Shown piece after piece: positions 33,931 through 57,349 of a stretch of 64,000 nt of DNA. Source of the DNA: Escherichia phage HX01. A program made the position numbers and the translations under genes. A model generated the notes under the pieces. The model was given only the letters and a program-made list of their open reading frames with translations, did not search any database and was not told the DNA's origin. The DNA lies in the sequence record NC_018855.1. One strand, written 5' to 3'. Within the stretch, counting starts at the first letter, position 1. The number at the start of each line of letters is the position of its first letter.

Positions 33931-33997
33931 AATAATGATGTACAAGCACCAAGGATGGTGATACTATAGACTTATCAACTACAGTGGAGTAAACAAA

Positions 33998-49348: not shown

Positions 49349-49879
49349 ATGAAAACTGTAATTGAAACAACCGAGTTGTTTGGTGATTTATGTATCGAAA
49401 AACGTGGTTATGTGTATGTTCTGACACAAGAAGATGATGCTGCTACTATTCTTCCTATGGAACTGGACAAGATTTTGAAACTCAATCCACCCGGCCATGC
49501 ATCTGTAATTAACATTGATGAAGACCTTCAAGTTCGTTTTTATCACGGACTTTATAGTGGGGTTAATATCGAAACTGAAGACGAATGTTTTTCTATTAAT
49601 AATTGGAAAACATTCGTCACTAAGGTGAAAGAATTCATGGAATCTGAAACAGTCAAAAAAGCCAAACTTCAATGGGCTAAATGCCGTAATGCTTTTATTA
49701 CAAATCAGGACCGCCCTGACTATACAACGATCCTAGGTGTTAATCCTTCTTATGAAGATGGCGATGTTGTAGTTATTCGTCAAATTGATGACCTTCGTCA
49801 GCATATCGTTACATTAGACAAAGATGAAGCAGTTGCTCTTAAAGCTTATCTCGATTCTATTATCCCAACTTTGAAATAA
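49349..49879 (+). CDS. Hypothetical protein
   Basis: 176 aa from ATG 49349. Confidence 0.55.
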   Translation: MKTVIETTELFGDLCIEKRGYVYVLTQEDDAATILPMELDKILKLNPPGHASVINIDEDLQVRFYHGLYSGVNIETEDECFSINNWKTFVTKVKEFMESETVKKAKLQWAKCRNAFITNQDRPDYTTILGVNPSYEDGDVVVIRQIDDLRQHIVTLDKDEAVALKAYLDSIIPTLK

Positions 49880-51448: not shown

Positions 51449-51486
51449 AGACCTATCGAAACGAAATGAGTAAATTGGAGAATAAA

Positions 51487-52467
51487 ATGTTCAACGTTCA
51501 AATCAAAAAAGGTATCTATCGTAATAACGAAATCTCCGGTTCTTATGTTGCCACAAAGACATGGTTCCCGGCAAAGCTTAATCCTGAATGTTCCCACTTA
51601 GGTGACGGTAAAATTTTCGTTATGATCGATGGTTCTGAACGTGGAGTATGGGTCTTCAAATCAGACATCGTAATGGAAGGAGTTGAGACGTCACCAGTTG
51701 CAGTTGTTGAAAGCACTGAAGATATGAAAACTCGTATCAACAAACGCTTTAAAGTAATGAACATGATGACGAATGGCATTATCGATGGCAAAATTCGTTC
51801 ACTCATTATTTCAGGTGCAGCTGGTATTGGTAAGACGTATTCTCTGGATAAAGCACTTAATAATGCTAATGATAACGGTTTCATCAAATACAAAAGCATT
51901 AATGGTAAAATCTCTGGTATTGGCCTTTACGAACAACTTTGGCTCAACCGTGATGCGGACAGCGTTCTCTTAATCGACGACGTTGACGTATTCTCAGATA
52001 TGGACATCTTGAACCTTCTTAAAGCAGCATTAGATACTGGAGATAAACGCAAAGTTTGCTGGAGCACTGCGTCATCTTATCTCGATGATAAGGGTATTGA
52101 TAAAGAATTTGAGTTTGAAGGTACTATCGTTTTCATTACAAACGTTGATATCGATAAAGAGTTAGAACGCGGTTCGAAACTTGCCCCACACCTTCAAGCT
52201 TTAGTATCTCGTTCAGTGTATCTCGACCTTGGAGTACACTCTAATGAAGAGATTATGGTTCGAGTTGAAGATGTAATATTATCTACTGACATGATGCAGA
52301 AACGTGGTCTGACGGATGCAGAAACGTATAAAGCATTGTCCTGGATGAAGGCCAACGTATCTCGTCTTCGCAATGTATCATTACGTACGGCTCTTTATGT
52401 AGCAGATTTTATTTCAACTGATAAAGATGGTTGGGAAGAAATCTCTGAAGTAACTTTACTGAAATAA
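51487..52467 (+). CDS. AAA+ family ATPase
   Basis: Walker A ISGAAGIGKTY, Walker B VLLIDDVD, sensor-1-like VFITN; 326 aa from ATG 51487. Confidence 0.65.
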   Translation: MFNVQIKKGIYRNNEISGSYVATKTWFPAKLNPECSHLGDGKIFVMIDGSERGVWVFKSDIVMEGVETSPVAVVESTEDMKTRINKRFKVMNMMTNGIIDGKIRSLIISGAAGIGKTYSLDKALNNANDNGFIKYKSINGKISGIGLYEQLWLNRDADSVLLIDDVDVFSDMDILNLLKAALDTGDKRKVCWSTASSYLDDKGIDKEFEFEGTIVFITNVDIDKELERGSKLAPHLQALVSRSVYLDLGVHSNEEIMVRVEDVILSTDMMQKRGLTDAETYKALSWMKANVSRLRNVSLRTALYVADFISTDKDGWEEISEVTLLK

Positions 52468-52605: not shown

Positions 52606-52893
52606 ATGGATTTTATGCAAAAAATTAAAGCCGCAGTCGAACTGTATGCTCATCGTATGGTTAGTTCTACGATGCAATATAGCGAGGAGGTTCGCCAGGA
52701 CTCTTCCTTGAAAGGAAAAACTAAAGCCTTAATTACCTTAGACCGTCTACAAAAGAATGCCCTAGAGTTGTTCCAGTACGACAAGGATGCATATAAGAAA
52801 GAACAGGAAGAGAAACTTAAATCCGAAAAATTACAGAAAGTCCCGAAGTCTGTTTGGTTCAGTGGAAAAAATACCGAAAAAAGTTTCTTTTAG
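52606..52893 (+). CDS. Hypothetical protein
   Basis: 95 aa, RBS AAAGAGGA. Confidence 0.5.
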   Translation: MDFMQKIKAAVELYAHRMVSSTMQYSEEVRQDSSLKGKTKALITLDRLQKNALELFQYDKDAYKKEQEEKLKSEKLQKVPKSVWFSGKNTEKSFF

Positions 52894-52951: not shown

Positions 52952-53479
52952 ATGAACGCTAAAGATATTTTCAACCTGGTAAATTATAACGACGGTAAAT
53001 TTAAATCTGAAGCACAAAGCAAGTTCTTTAATGACGTTGCTTATGGTAACGAGATTACCGTGGACGGAGGTCAGATTTTCAAATCTCGCTGGAATTGGAT
53101 TGCTATCATCGATTCAGTTGGAATTGTGGAAGTCTACAAAAACACTAACAAAAAACGTACATTATTCTGGTCTCGTGAAACTAACGAGCAGTACAAAAAG
53201 GATAAAGCATCTCGTTTATCCAAAGTAACCCAGGAAGATATCGAGTTTATCAAGAAAGATATCGAGATGTACGAAAATTTAATCGCTGAAGACCAGGCAG
53301 TACTCGATAAGTTTGATGAAATTAAAGCTTCTCGTGAAATCCCTGACTTCATGAAAGAAACAGTAAACGAACGATACGCTCTCACTTCAGAACGTATTGC
53401 AAACTATACAAAACAGAAAGCAGAACGTATTAGTACTCTTCGGAAATTTGAAGAACGTTTAAAGACGGTTCACGCATAA
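52952..53479 (+). CDS. Hypothetical protein
   Basis: 175 aa ORF. Confidence 0.55.
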   Translation: MNAKDIFNLVNYNDGKFKSEAQSKFFNDVAYGNEITVDGGQIFKSRWNWIAIIDSVGIVEVYKNTNKKRTLFWSRETNEQYKKDKASRLSKVTQEDIEFIKKDIEMYENLIAEDQAVLDKFDEIKASREIPDFMKETVNERYALTSERIANYTKQKAERISTLRKFEERLKTVHA

Positions 53480-53541
53480 ACGCTTTACCCAAGGACGGGT
53501 TATAATGGTTTTGAGTTCCAATTCAATCTGAGGAAATAGAT

Positions 53542-54537
53542 ATGAGCATTACATCTGATGCGGTAAAACATGAAATTAACGGTTTATGTGCTTCACAGAT
53601 TAAAGTATGGTTTAAAGACCATAATGATCGCAGAGCACTTAATTATGAGCAAATTGCTATCCAAGTTCATCAATTACTGACTAGTAAATTTGATTTTCAT
53701 ATGCCGTCTGAAATCTATACTAATCTACCGCGAGCGCTTATTAAAGCGTGTAAAGGTTACGGAAAATCAATGGCCGATGGAATCTTCAGCGCGCTGAATA
53801 AACTTAACGTTCTGTCGATGATTAACTCTAACAACATCCTGCGTAATCTAGGACGTACTGATTTGTTCGGTCGTGAACAGTGTAAAATGCCTTTGAAATG
53901 GATTGTTGCTCATCTTAACGAGAACCAAACACGTTTTATGGCCGTATCAGCACGCTTACAAATGGGCCTAGATCGTCAGATGAACTTTAAAACTCATCCA
54001 CGGTATTCAGGTTCAACAGACTTTTATAAATGTGAGCTTCAAAAGGTTGCAGGTAAAACTGTCTTAGTAGTTCGTGTAACGTTTGAAGGACGACGTCAAG
54101 GATATTTTGACCTAATCGGCTCTGGTCTTAAACATTGTGGATTTATTGACGAAGTTGATATTAAGCGAGACGGCATTGGATACCGTATTGGATATGTTTG
54201 TACTCTTAAAGAAGAGATTTCAGGACCAGCACCAGGACTAAAAGACGTTAGATATAAAGACGAGCTTGTTGAAGAAATAAAAGAAGTTGAATATGATATC
54301 AACCAAGAAGATGCTCTTAAAGACCTTATTGATGAACTAAACCAAGACATTATTCCGGTTCAGAAATTTGAATCAAAACATGTTGAGCAAATCAAATACT
54401 TTGAAGCTTTGATTAACGAACTTAATGTAACTATTCAACAGACTGATGATGAAATCTCACGATTAGCAGGCTTAAATGGTAAAAATAAAACGGAACGAGC
54501 TAATCTTATTCAAGTAGTAAAACTTCTTAAGGAATGA
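53542..54537 (+). CDS. Hypothetical 331-aa protein with C-terminal coiled coil (tandem family member 1)
   Basis: Long ORF, RBS GAGGAAA, C-terminal heptad-rich tail. Confidence 0.6.
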   Translation: MSITSDAVKHEINGLCASQIKVWFKDHNDRRALNYEQIAIQVHQLLTSKFDFHMPSEIYTNLPRALIKACKGYGKSMADGIFSALNKLNVLSMINSNNILRNLGRTDLFGREQCKMPLKWIVAHLNENQTRFMAVSARLQMGLDRQMNFKTHPRYSGSTDFYKCELQKVAGKTVLVVRVTFEGRRQGYFDLIGSGLKHCGFIDEVDIKRDGIGYRIGYVCTLKEEISGPAPGLKDVRYKDELVEEIKEVEYDINQEDALKDLIDELNQDIIPVQKFESKHVEQIKYFEALINELNVTIQQTDDEISRLAGLNGKNKTERANLIQVVKLLKE

Positions 54538-54566
54538 TGTACAACCAGGGATGGTTGGAGTATAAT
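54538..54566 (+). promoter_or_regulatory. T4-type early promoter with CAACCA/TGGTTG stem-loop
   Basis: TGTACA, 17-nt spacer, TATAAT; near-duplicate of 55533 promoter. Confidence 0.55.
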
Positions 54567-54592
54567 AAATTTTTCAACATGAGGAATATAAA

Positions 54593-55528
54593 ATGGCTTC
54601 TATTACACGTAGAGAACTTATCAAAGAATTTACCTCGAACGCATATACCCCAGGACCTAATCCTATCCGTATGCCTGTAAAGACTCCTGAAGAGATTGAG
54701 GAAATCTGTTCATATTATGGGATTAATTCTCGTAAGTTTACTCAATTTGAATGCGTTACTAACACACCCGTTAAAGAGTTCATTAAAAATGGTGAGTTCA
54801 GCCGTTTATTAGCCAAACAGAAACTTCGTAATTTTTGTATTGGCGGTGAAGGACAATATTTCGCTAAGCAGTTCAGGAATAACCTTAACAATCTGATGGC
54901 CATTGCTTCTCGTATTCGTCCTCAAGCAATTAACATGAAACATTTGAAATATACTTACGATAAGTTAGAAATCATGGTTATCAGTGAGAACGAGTTCACT
55001 CTTACGTATAAACCTAAGAATGATAACGTTGCTCGTGTATTCCACCAAGCGTTGGAAGTGTTAGGTGATAATATCCACCAGATTAAAGCAATTTATTCTC
55101 GTGAGCTTAATATTATCAACCCTATCAAGAATAAGGGCCATATCGCTATCCAGGCTCGTGTATCTATTGGTAAAAAGGTTCCTGCGCCATGGTGGCACAA
55201 AGACTCTGAATACTATCAAAATCTTAAAAAGGAAAATGCAACGTTCGAAGCGTCAATTACTACAACCCCAATTGGCAATGCTGAAGTTCAAGGTGCATAT
55301 TTTACTGCTCCATCTATATACACTTCACCGTCGACTAAACTGGAAATCTCTAACGGTCTTCTTCCTGCCGAAGATTACTATTATAATCAAATCAAAGCCA
55401 CTGTGGACCAACTGTCTGTTGAACTTGACAAAGCACAAGCTAAGCTTCGTGATGCTCAACAAGTAGTTACCAAGCTCCAGTTGCAGTACTCTAAACTTTT
55501 TAACGCAATGAATGCATTAAAATCATAA
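54593..55528 (+). CDS. Hypothetical 311-aa protein with C-terminal coiled coil (tandem family member 2)
   Basis: Long ORF with own early promoter; C-terminal heptad-rich tail. Confidence 0.6.
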   Translation: MASITRRELIKEFTSNAYTPGPNPIRMPVKTPEEIEEICSYYGINSRKFTQFECVTNTPVKEFIKNGEFSRLLAKQKLRNFCIGGEGQYFAKQFRNNLNNLMAIASRIRPQAINMKHLKYTYDKLEIMVISENEFTLTYKPKNDNVARVFHQALEVLGDNIHQIKAIYSRELNIINPIKNKGHIAIQARVSIGKKVPAPWWHKDSEYYQNLKKENATFEASITTTPIGNAEVQGAYFTAPSIYTSPSTKLEISNGLLPAEDYYYNQIKATVDQLSVELDKAQAKLRDAQQVVTKLQLQYSKLFNAMNALKS

Positions 55529-55532
55529 ATCA

Positions 55533-55562
55533 GTTTACAACCAAGGATGGTTGGAGTATAAT
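55533..55562 (+). promoter_or_regulatory. T4-type early promoter with CAACCA/TGGTTG stem-loop
   Basis: GTTTAC, 18-nt spacer, TATAAT. Confidence 0.55.
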
Positions 55563-55590
55563 CTTTCTATCTTAACGAGAGGAAAATATT

Positions 55591-56541
55591 ATGACACGTT
55601 CACATTACATTGATTATTTTGCAGGTCTTATCGCTAACGTTCATGCCCAACGTGCTTCTGGTTCATTAGGATTTGATGTTCCACACCGAGTTGTAGTAAG
55701 TGGTATTCTTCGCGATTTTGGTACATACACAGGCCAAGAAAATCATATCTGTAAAGATACTCAGAATGCATATTCTCATTCATTAGGGACACTGCTTCAA
55801 TGGTTCAAACGTTCTCGTTTATTATCTTCTACTGTAGCTCGCGATAACATTAAAAACTTTATGAAGCCGAGCTTTATTAAATCTGTGACATCTAAAACCG
55901 ATTTGGTTGAATTCACTATTGTTAATGATGTTAAAAAGACTCATTTGGCTGATTGGTTATCTACCATTCCTGAAACTAAATTTGCTGATAAATTTGCTTG
56001 TCAGTTCAATGACCAAGTGAATATGCTTTTTAAGCATGCTCGTAAACTATTTACTGCAGGTGATGACCGTACAAATACAGTTCATGTTAAGGATTGGGTT
56101 ATTGCTGATGAAGTAACACATAAGCCAGGTGGTTCATCAGTATTAATTAATATTCAGGTTCCTTATTATTACTCACGTAATCTCGGCACCATGAACTCTA
56201 AAGAAATTAATAAGCACAACAAAACTATTCGTTCGTTGTCTTATAAACTCCGCATGATGTTAAAAATTATGGACGTAGTGGAAATGTATGACGAAACCGA
56301 AGATAATGGTTCAATGTTATACAGTTCACGCATTCTAATTAAACTGAAGAACCCTAATACATATAAGCCAAATGTAAAAGAACCTAAAGTAGAAAAGGTT
56401 GATAACCTGAGCGAAGAACGTGAATATCTCAAATCTCGACTAGTTGAAGTTGAAGTCCAGATTGCCGAACACACCAAATTGTTAAAAGCTCTTAATGCAA
56501 AAGCAAATGGTTTACGTAATGCTATTGAGGTATTGAAATGA
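55591..56541 (+). CDS. Hypothetical 316-aa protein with C-terminal coiled coil (tandem family member 3)
   Basis: Long ORF with own early promoter; C-terminal heptad-rich tail. Confidence 0.6.
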   Translation: MTRSHYIDYFAGLIANVHAQRASGSLGFDVPHRVVVSGILRDFGTYTGQENHICKDTQNAYSHSLGTLLQWFKRSRLLSSTVARDNIKNFMKPSFIKSVTSKTDLVEFTIVNDVKKTHLADWLSTIPETKFADKFACQFNDQVNMLFKHARKLFTAGDDRTNTVHVKDWVIADEVTHKPGGSSVLINIQVPYYYSRNLGTMNSKEINKHNKTIRSLSYKLRMMLKIMDVVEMYDETEDNGSMLYSSRILIKLKNPNTYKPNVKEPKVEKVDNLSEEREYLKSRLVEVEVQIAEHTKLLKALNAKANGLRNAIEVLK

Positions 56542-56855
56542 AAAAGCGTCTATTAGAAGATATTGCAGCTTCAAGTAATTCCAGTCTAATTAAAATTATT
56601 ATGGCTGGTGAAGAAGACGATTTAGAAATGCGCGGAAAGATTCATGGTTGTGACGATTTAGATTTTAAACCTCCGGCTTGGGATGCCATTATGGCTATGG
56701 TTAAACGTCGCGAAAGGGCTTCTAAAAACGTTCCTAATTGTCCTGAATGTGGTACTGAACAGGTTCAATTAGTTCATTGGCAGACTAGTAATCTTCGTTA
56801 TAAATGCCGTCATTGTAAACACCGATTTGACCGAGAAGAAAATGACAAAGCGTAA
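56538..56855 (+). CDS. Zn-ribbon hypothetical protein
   Basis: 105 aa with CPECG...CRHC four-Cys cluster. Confidence 0.5.
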
Positions 56856-57084
56856 AGAATATATGGAGACTGCTGAAAAGGCAGTCCGTGAATTAGCAAT
56901 AGCGTATTATAATGAACACGGTAAATTTCCTGATAGATACAGCGTGCTTAAATCTGCTTTAACTCGTTCATATAAAAATATGCTATCAGAAGTAAGTGAT
57001 ATTATATACAAACATAAAGAACAAACAGGTCAAAGTCTTGATTACGACGAGACTTTTAAACAAGTACTAGGAATTAAGGAATAA
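56842..57084 (+). CDS. Hypothetical protein
   Basis: 80 aa from ATG 56842; start uncertain. Confidence 0.45.
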
Positions 57085-57085
57085 T

Positions 57086-57349
57086 ATGTTTAAAGTATAT
57101 GGTTATGATAGCAGCATCCATAAATGTGTGTATTGCGATAATGCAAAACGTCTTTTGACCGTAAAGAAACAGCCGTTTGAATTTATCAACATTATGCCGA
57201 AAAAAGGTGTTTTTGATGATGAGAAAATTGCTGAGCTTCTGACTAAACTAGGTCGTGATACTCAAATTGGACTGACGATGCCACAAGTATTTGCTCCTGA
57301 TGGAAGTCATATTGGTGGATTTGACCAATTGCGGGAATACTTTAAATGA
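57086..57349 (+). CDS. nrdC: Thioredoxin/glutaredoxin NrdC
   Basis: MFKVYGYDSSIHKCVYCDNAKRLL... 87 aa, matches T4 NrdC by recall. Confidence 0.9.
   Translation: MFKVYGYDSSIHKCVYCDNAKRLLTVKKQPFEFINIMPKKGVFDDEKIAELLTKLGRDTQIGLTMPQVFAPDGSHIGGFDQLREYFK

Follow-up and report, generated by a model that had tools for sequence, protein, structure and literature searches.

Related genes and promoter cassettes in T4-type phages

Genes nrdC.3, nrdC.4 and nrdC.6 of phage T4 yield early RNA and early protein, and nrdC.5 yields early RNA and middle protein (PMC9697503, supplement). The nrdC.1-6 block can be deleted (PMC9825161). An evolved T4 clone deleted for nrdC.5 does not plate on Escherichia coli ECOR17 or on MG1655 carrying the ECOR17 dsr1 gene, and expression of nrdC.5 restored plating of that clone on Dsr1+ cells (Srikant, Guegler & Laub 2022, PMC9391042). 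Dsr1 is a SIR2 defence of E. coli ECOR17 (PMC9391042). The present analysis concerns the corresponding locus of Escherichia phage HX01 (NC_018855.1), contained in a stretch of 64,000 nucleotides called here the window, where three consecutive genes, designated A, B and C, occupy positions 53542 to 56541. We favour, with moderate confidence, the reading that they encode non-essential early proteins of an array belonging to a T4-like-phage superfamily, whose role is most likely counter-defence.

The second described system of relevance is the promoter-early stem-loop (PeSL), a composite promoter/terminator cassette of the hyperplastic regions in T4-type phage genomes (Arbiol et al. 2010, PMC2839356; Comeau et al. 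2014, PMC4122927). Recombination between PeSLs deletes, inserts or exchanges the open reading frames (ORFs) that they flank, and their PST/T4 consensus is TTTACW-N17-TAYWAT (PMC2839356, PMC4122927). Degraded PeSLs that are "inappropriately spaced" have also been described (Comeau et al. 2014, PMC4122927).

A preliminary description of the HX01 locus, made from its sequence, was largely correct in its observations and on the right track in its interpretation. It mostly rediscovers entities that are already known, namely the annotated T4 nrdC.3-6 families, the anti-Dsr1 DUF7235 family and the PeSL cassettes, the last of which it did not recognise as such.

Identity of genes A, B and C

The region is that of a T4-like coliphage of the genus Mosigvirus, HX01-like (megablast, best match 96%). 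As first described, three ORFs lie head to tail on the + strand. Gene A (53542-54537, 331 amino acids, aa) encodes a NrdC.6-family homologue (phrog_2257, PF26899), gene B (54593-55528, 311 aa) a protein of Pfam family DUF7235 (PF23882, phrog_2351) and gene C (55591-56541, 316 aa) a NrdC.3 orthologue (phrog_1435, PF26897). PF26899 and PF26897 are precomputed Pfam labels absent from the local Pfam copy. The T4 gene order is kept, with A, B and C matching NrdC.6, NrdC.5 and NrdC.3, respectively. The identities of the neighbouring genes, established by BLASTP, show that the trio fills the T4 slot of nrdC.6, nrdC.5, nrdC.4 and nrdC.3. Gene order and architecture of T4 NrdC.3, NrdC.4 and NrdC.6 are alike in the HX01-type locus, whereas HX01 has neither a NrdC.4 copy nor NrdC.7.

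B matches the DUF7235 profile over its full length (376.8 bits for a cut-off of 30, E 1.2e-112, residues 15-310 against profile positions 1-307 of 307). The same profile is matched full-length by T4 NrdC.5 (420.6 bits, E 5e-126) and by IME08 orf82 (397 bits). B-type alleles are restricted to some Mosigviruses (131 records).

C is 100% identical to HX01 gp097, 84-89% identical to the RB14-type allele, whose class is common among other Tequatroviruses, and 55% identical to T4 NrdC.3 over 316 aa (E 1e-118). Its stop codon overlaps the nrdC.2 start in the ATGA at 56538-56541. Full-length similarity and the syntenic position directly upstream of nrdC.2 identify C as the NrdC.3 orthologue; it is at the same time a paralogue of NrdC.4. 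Two metagenomic proteins with hydrolase or oxidoreductase Pfam domains (P0057, P0058) are 67-85% identical to 10-19% of C; chimeric assembly or a gene-call artefact is the probable explanation for both.

A is homologous to NrdC.6-type proteins over its full length, tail included, at ~32-33% identity. By tblastn its residues 27-330 align to them with ~33% identity (E 1e-25), and the NrdC.6 proteins of RB14, ACG-C40 and IME08 give E-values of 1e-26 to 1e-32. It shares with this family the motifs LNK..LS..N..IL.N and NQ.R..A..ARL..GLD.QM.FKT together with the tail. The family is tiny: an exhaustive HMMER profile search of 1.84 billion representatives returned 6 clusters, all of them phage NrdC.6-type proteins or fragments, so that there are no cellular homologues to lend A a function. 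Word-seeded homologue searches retrieved close relatives only, with 4 proteins for A, 19 for B and 35 for C.

A putative counter-defence array

The favoured counter-defence role follows from the literature on the T4 homologues, that is, their early expression, their dispensability and the anti-Dsr1 effect. The anti-defence set proposed in the preliminary description stands best for B, because T4 nrdC.5, of the same DUF7235 family, overcomes Dsr1 (PMC9391042); for A and C it is an extension by analogy. B resembles T4 NrdC.5 in its DUF7235 match, array position, size and C-terminal tail, and is somewhat more likely than not a counter-defence protein. The same assignment is more tentative for A, and likewise for C, and we rate its chance as somewhat under even in each case. 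What weighs against the assignment of B is that its identity to T4 NrdC.5 is only 23%, so that Dsr1 specificity may not carry over to it; B-type alleles occur in some Mosigviruses only and the anti-Dsr1 effect was seen for the T4 protein.

DSAD1 and other protein inhibitors of SIR2-type defences provide a precedent of early phage proteins blocking an NADase defence, and an analogous logic is proposed here. T4 NrdC.5, which genetically counters the SIR2 NADase Dsr1, would be the model case. Each protein is predicted to begin with a helical N-terminal domain, to continue through a small, variable alpha/beta domain and a flexible linker, and to end in a conserved coiled coil. The target of each paralogue could be a different host immunity protein or allele, to which the variable part would bind directly and which it would thereby neutralise, and the conserved tail would drive oligomerisation. 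On this view testable specificity determinants would lie in the variable middle domain.

Pfam and PDB searches found no sequence or structural similarity of the trio to any characterised inhibitor. Besides DUF7235, the Pfam scan yielded only sub-threshold coiled-coil noise, the NCBIfam and PADLOC scans gave no match, and PDB sequence searches hit coiled coils only, with no fold or PDB match pointing to a biochemical mechanism. NrdC.5 is not named in the text of the EVADES preprint.

Among the competing explanations the one that survives best, although we hold it unlikely, is that the three proteins are early factors of host takeover or housekeeping modulation, acting on host transcription, the nucleoid or metabolism and not on immunity. 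The anti-Dsr1 effect of NrdC.5 would then be indirect or peculiar to that protein. Early expression from strong promoters is compatible with such a role, as is the lack of a fold or domain that indicates a specific inhibitor mechanism. Many early T4-like proteins reprogramme the host, and 6 of the 45 AV110 early proteins tested were growth-inhibitory. However, the nrdC.1-6 block as a whole is not required on laboratory hosts, the slot holds 1 to 4 copies depending on the phage and shows natural deletions, and the sole phenotype known for any member is host-range/anti-defence. The strong divergence of the trio relative to its conserved flanks is likewise more in keeping with accessory genes of an arms race than with core functions of takeover.

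Should A, B and C act in counter-defence, the locus would be a compact, naturally shuffled anti-immunity array. The phages that carry it are widely regarded as candidates for treating E. coli and Shigella infections, and their set of copies could then predict host range. A bolder extension, which we regard as speculative and rather doubtful, is that NrdC.3, NrdC.4, NrdC.5 and NrdC.6 form one modular counter-defence platform across Straboviridae, in which scaffold and tail are conserved, the variable alpha/beta domain sets the targets and PeSL exchange tunes the repertoire. Scaffold and tail of such a platform could build oligomers, homomeric or heteromeric, or bind to a shared host hub, and Dsr1-type SIR2 NADases would be only the first known target of the variable domain. 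A gene apparently single-copy in Acinetobacter and Klebsiella phages would have expanded to 3-4 copies in coliphages.

Relationship among the three proteins

Divergent paralogy had been suggested from a short segment shared by A and B. The claim is supported for B and C, through another protein, and is probable for A from structure and architecture, not from the quoted segment. Direct pairwise BLASTP among A, B and C gives no match. In profile comparisons (hhalign) the NrdC.3 and NrdC.4 families are linked with 97% probability (E 5e-11), the NrdC.5 and NrdC.4 families with 90% over their full length (E 1.6e-6), and the tool-built B family and the C+NrdC.4 family with 84% (E 7e-6). As judged from these profiles, B and C are well supported as distant paralogues linked via T4-type NrdC.4.

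AlphaFold2 models were built for A and C only and compared by Foldseek with BFVD. The A model has an N-terminal helical domain (residues 1-143), a beta-beta-alpha-beta-beta segment (162-222), a disordered linker (226-277) and a C-terminal helical hairpin. The C model is colinear with it: in both, a six-to-seven-helix N-terminal domain is followed by beta-beta-alpha-beta-beta, a disordered linker and a terminal helix or hairpin, giving 13-14 secondary-structure elements in the same order. Compared with T4-type NrdC.6, A has a longer alpha/beta domain plus linker. The A model retrieved the NrdC.3 orthologue of fPS-65 (E 9.3e-5, probability 1.0, 356 columns) and the C model the NrdC.6 of JS10 (E 1.9e-4). 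These cross-family matches are reciprocal and full-length, with probabilities of 0.99-1.0. All named matches with E<1e-3 to either model are proteins of ~175-380 aa from T4-like phages, and both models match the same, mostly ~300 aa proteins of Acinetobacter, Klebsiella, Enterobacter, Serratia, Yersinia and Aeromonas T4-like phages.

The similarity of the predicted structures, together with the common architecture, makes it probable that A belongs with B and C. Several results speak against this placement. Comparison of the A family with the B or C family gives hhalign probabilities <3% and E-values of 0.015-0.019, which are not significant, and the unrelated control NrdC.10 reaches E 0.019 against the A family. 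Model confidence is low to medium, with a predicted local distance difference test score of 57 for C and 66 for A, whose N-terminal domain reaches ~80-90, and the Foldseek TM-scores are low for both models (0.2-0.5). The segment of the preliminary description, FMAVSARLQ in A and LMAIASRIRPQ in B, is present and falls in register in the profile-profile alignment; taken alone it is not significant (hhalign E 0.019, equalled by controls).

These results also supply the case for a second alternative, that A is not homologous to B and C. The locus would then hold two related genes with an unrelated neighbour, whose generic coiled-coil tail and similar size arose by convergence or composition. We consider this improbable. 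The reciprocal full-length Foldseek matches, with E ~1e-4, are specific to T4-like phage proteins, and the shared order of secondary-structure elements, the conserved syntenic position in the array and an extreme C-terminal motif identical in form all argue against it. The alignments of A are moreover long and colinear, extending over 214 columns against C, as far as the last residue, and over 61 against B; in each of the three pairwise profile comparisons the same two motifs stand in register and keep their order.

Common descent of A, B and C being the preferred reading, NrdC.3, NrdC.4, NrdC.5 and NrdC.6 would be unified into a single superfamily with a shared C-terminal motif. This unification is possibly new, since no prior description was found in the literature searched; if true, it would replace four T4 "hypothetical" families by one structural and mechanistic problem. 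Distant phages apparently have one such gene just upstream of a nrdC-like gene (Konradin orf117, Metamorpho gp214), which suggests that the array expanded by tandem duplication in coliphage lineages. The single-copy Konradin and Metamorpho proteins provide no significant sequence bridge between the families (best E 1e-3).

C-terminal coiled-coil tails

The last ~40-50 residues of each of the three proteins are heptad-rich, as first noticed, with z-scores for A, B and C of 3.0, 3.9 and 2.6 and 0-2 of 200 shuffles scoring as high (0/200 for B). The heptad score is home-made and evaluated against 200 shuffles, its scope being heptad content. The A tail, a putative coiled coil or helical hairpin (aa 281-331, 54382-54534, + strand), ends in ERANLIQVVKLLKE, and the B tail (aa 261-311, 55373-55525, + strand) in YSKLFNAMNALKS. 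The C tail is a predicted long helix or coiled coil (aa 274-316, 56410-56538, + strand). The score exceeds the 95th percentile of shuffles over residues 281-311 of A and 261-311 of B. For C, the 28-residue maximum at 286-313 lies inside a broader above-threshold span (203-316). Periodicity thus covers 4 heptads or more in each tail. Terminal helices are modelled by AlphaFold2 at 281-309 and 313-330 in A and at 274-315 in C. The A tail is invariant across NrdC.6-type proteins of ~30% overall identity, the C tail is the most conserved segment of a 29-sequence alignment, and the only PDB sequence matches of the B tail, all weak, are to the BAP31 coiled coil.

All families share the terminal motif L-x-x-[AV]-h-x-x-L-K. 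It is seen in the tail ends of A (LIQVVKLLKE), B (LFNAMNALKS) and C (LRNAIEVLK), as well as of T4 NrdC.4 (LEQALQLIK), T4 NrdC.5 (LNNALNALN) and IME08 orf82 (LRAAVLALK); the Konradin orf117 tail ends in ILEETIKILSK. Within the window the motif is found in 4 of 80 ORFs, A, B, C and one other, for a shuffled-tail rate of 1e-4. The motif was defined post hoc, from the sequences themselves, which weakens its value as support for a common family. The fourth ORF, of 176 aa and outside the trio (49349-49879, + strand, ending in LKAYLDSIIPTLK), could be a chance occurrence or a short relative.

Recent gene conversion as the origin of the similar tails is rejected because DNA-level repeats are confined to the PeSL. 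Swapping of N-terminal domains onto a conserved tail, considered for ACG-C40 and Pinarejo, was rejected as both loci are deletion scars. In ACG-C40 (L003 7805-8216) a 72-aa nrdC.5 stub precedes an unannotated nrdC.3 3' remnant, showing that nrdC.5 to nrdC.3 were lost, and in Pinarejo (L004 6001-6135) nrdC.6 is reduced to a 3' remnant. Two proteins that consist of the NrdC.6 tail only (P0062, P0063) are probably remnants too. T4 NrdC.6 (275 aa, L002 7067-7894) lacks the conserved coiled-coil tail: it diverges after residue ~259 from the 295-aa proteins of RB14 (L006 4968-5855) and ACG-C40 (L003 6909-7796), which suggests that the reference T4 strain carries a frameshift or truncation.

Promoter stem-loops of the array

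Strong, near-consensus sigma70-like sites precede B and C. The element upstream of B (54538-54566, + strand) reads TGTACA-17-TATAAT, with the hairpin CAACCA-GGGA-TGGTTG at 54542-54557 and the -10 box at 54561-54566. The element upstream of C (55534-55562, + strand) reads TTTACA-17-TATAAT, with the hairpin CAACCA-AGGA-TGGTTG at 55538-55553 and the -10 box at 55557-55562. Both are followed by GAGGAA and then ATG. The near-identical stem-loops reported before these two genes are borne out: the quoted 25-mer has two occurrences, one exact and one with 1 mismatch, for 0 expected by chance.

An own early promoter for each of the three genes, as initially proposed, holds for B and C, with their 17-nucleotide spacers, and fails for A. 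Upstream of A (53484-53506, + strand), TTTACC (53484-53489) is separated from TATAAT (53501-53506) by 11 nucleotides, a spacer too short for a canonical promoter, and there is no TGn extended -10. A hairpin remnant, ACCC-AAGGAC-GGGT, lies at 53487-53500. T4 nrdC.7 and IME08 nrdC.6 are preceded by the same short form. Given this degraded PeSL, read-through from a promoter upstream of nrdC.8 is one possibility for the transcription of A.

The promoter stem-loops of B and C are PeSLs, a published class. They share with the PeSLs of T4-type phages the early promoter consensus, the stem-loop, the Shine-Dalgarno sequence and ATG, and the location between non-essential ORFs; degraded, mis-spaced copies like the one upstream of A are known as well. 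Two features differ. The HX01 stem-loop sits within the -35/-10 spacer, whereas the PST figures place it just upstream of the promoter, and the HX01 hairpin has an invariant CA-AGGA-TG core, whereas the RB49 PeSL stem-loop is G/C-rich. The element TTTAC(A)-[arm-AGGA-arm']-(GGAG)-TATAAT recurs before different genes in T4, RB14, IME08 and the window. The hairpin arms covary, with 92.6% of positions paired across 9 copies and compensatory changes at 4 of the 6 pairs; 0 of 500 shuffles reach this value and slid controls attain at most 44%.

B and C would each have a PeSL of their own for expression, in which a covarying hairpin is embedded in an early promoter of sigma70 type. Some observations count against this part of the reading. 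Its stability is ordinary (-7.8 kcal/mol, z about -1), an alternative fold is preferred in the context of the element upstream of C, and it has no U-tract, so that terminator activity is not evident; the terminator scan makes no call at the site. An Rfam search of the hairpin region gave no match. Terminator, RNA 3' end, RegB context and recombination site are all candidate roles for the hairpin.

The window holds a further hairpin of this kind at 33947-33960 (+ strand), in the element upstream of an unrelated early gene. These promoters form an early-promoter subclass with a 5-6 bp hairpin and the invariant core inside the -35/-10 spacer and with arms that covary across phages and genes, in which GGAG, the RegB cleavage motif, often stands directly before TATAAT.

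The PeSLs of B and C constitute a 27-nucleotide direct repeat of 96% identity (left copy 54540-54566, right copy 55536-55562). It is the sole substantial DNA repeat in the region and its copies bracket B exactly. In the Mosigvirus AV110 the A-type and C-type genes are present (98% and 87% identical) and B is missing. Its A-to-C spacer is composed of the left half of the element upstream of B and the right half of the element upstream of C, with the crossover within the repeat. As in published PeSLs, the gene between the repeats is cleanly missing from a close relative and a chimeric PeSL marks the junction. The presence/absence polymorphism of B is a clean natural example of PeSL-mediated cassette exchange and widens the reach of this mechanism to include Mosigviruses and genes of ~1 kb whose phenotype class is known. 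PeSLs would double in this manner as short direct repeats through which whole gene cassettes are lost, gained and exchanged between phages. The hairpin-in-spacer PeSL variant with covariation and the B-cassette polymorphism are possibly new, neither being described in the literature searched.

Plasticity of the nrdC.3-6 slot

The number of copies in the slot ranges from 1 to 4 across T4-like phages. T4 has 4, its NrdC.6 tail being truncated relative to RB14 and ACG-C40, and RB14 also has 4. There are 3 in the HX01 window, IME08 and Pinarejo, 2 in AV110, and 1 in Konradin, Metamorpho and ACG-C40, the latter with additional scars. The preliminary description had called the family diversifying. 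This is correct with respect to deep divergence and allele or cassette exchange, the trio proteins being 23-55% identical between HX01 and T4 for 77-100% in the flanking genes. It does not extend to positive selection, which was not found. Gene-wide ratios of non-synonymous to synonymous substitution rates (NG86 dN/dS) are 0.07-0.33, below 1, which indicates purifying or relaxed selection and counts against the favoured reading of the array.

The locus is a mosaic. Identity to Mosigvirus mogra is 97-98% for NrdC.10, NrdC.8, A and B; NrdC.2, NrdC.1 and NrdC are 89-100% identical to T4 and only 50-87% to mogra and AV110. The synonymous rate (dS) between C and mogra is 0.09 over codons 1-150 and 0.5-1.1 downstream, and between C and RB14 it is 0.16 over codons 151-255. 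Sequences are Mosigvirus-like up to the first ~150 codons of C and Tequatrovirus-like from the rest of C through NrdC. This switch near codon 150 reveals an intergeneric recombination junction inside C, which differs from T4 NrdC.3 in being an intergeneric recombinant allele.

Presence/absence polymorphism and deep allelic divergence are also expected of immune triggers, and anti-defence proteins are often themselves sensed as triggers by other defences (EVADES preprint, introduction), but the idea that the three proteins are decoys or sensors' targets, abundant early products recognised by immunity that diverge or are lost and gained for escape, is highly improbable because T4 nrdC.5 rescues infection on Dsr1+ cells without sensitising the phage and most T-even genomes keep 3-4 copies, which points to a benefit.

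Neighbouring genes

BLASTP against the T4 locus identified the genes on both sides of the array. Upstream lie NrdC.10 (51466-52467, + strand, 77% identical), NrdC.9 (52606-52893) and NrdC.8 (52952-53479, 83% identical). Downstream are NrdC.2 (56538-56855, 89% identical), NrdC.1 (56827-57084, 100% identical) and the thioredoxin NrdC (57086-57349, 98% identical). The entire nrdC.x block is called "thioredoxin" in many GenBank records, a misannotation propagated from the gene names, as only NrdC is one. The NrdC.10-like protein is a P-loop/AAA ATPase, named clamp loader or thioredoxin in some records. Its conservation is far wider than that of the trio (1310 phage records), with relatives that include Vibrio KVP40-type phages and jumbo phages such as RaK2.

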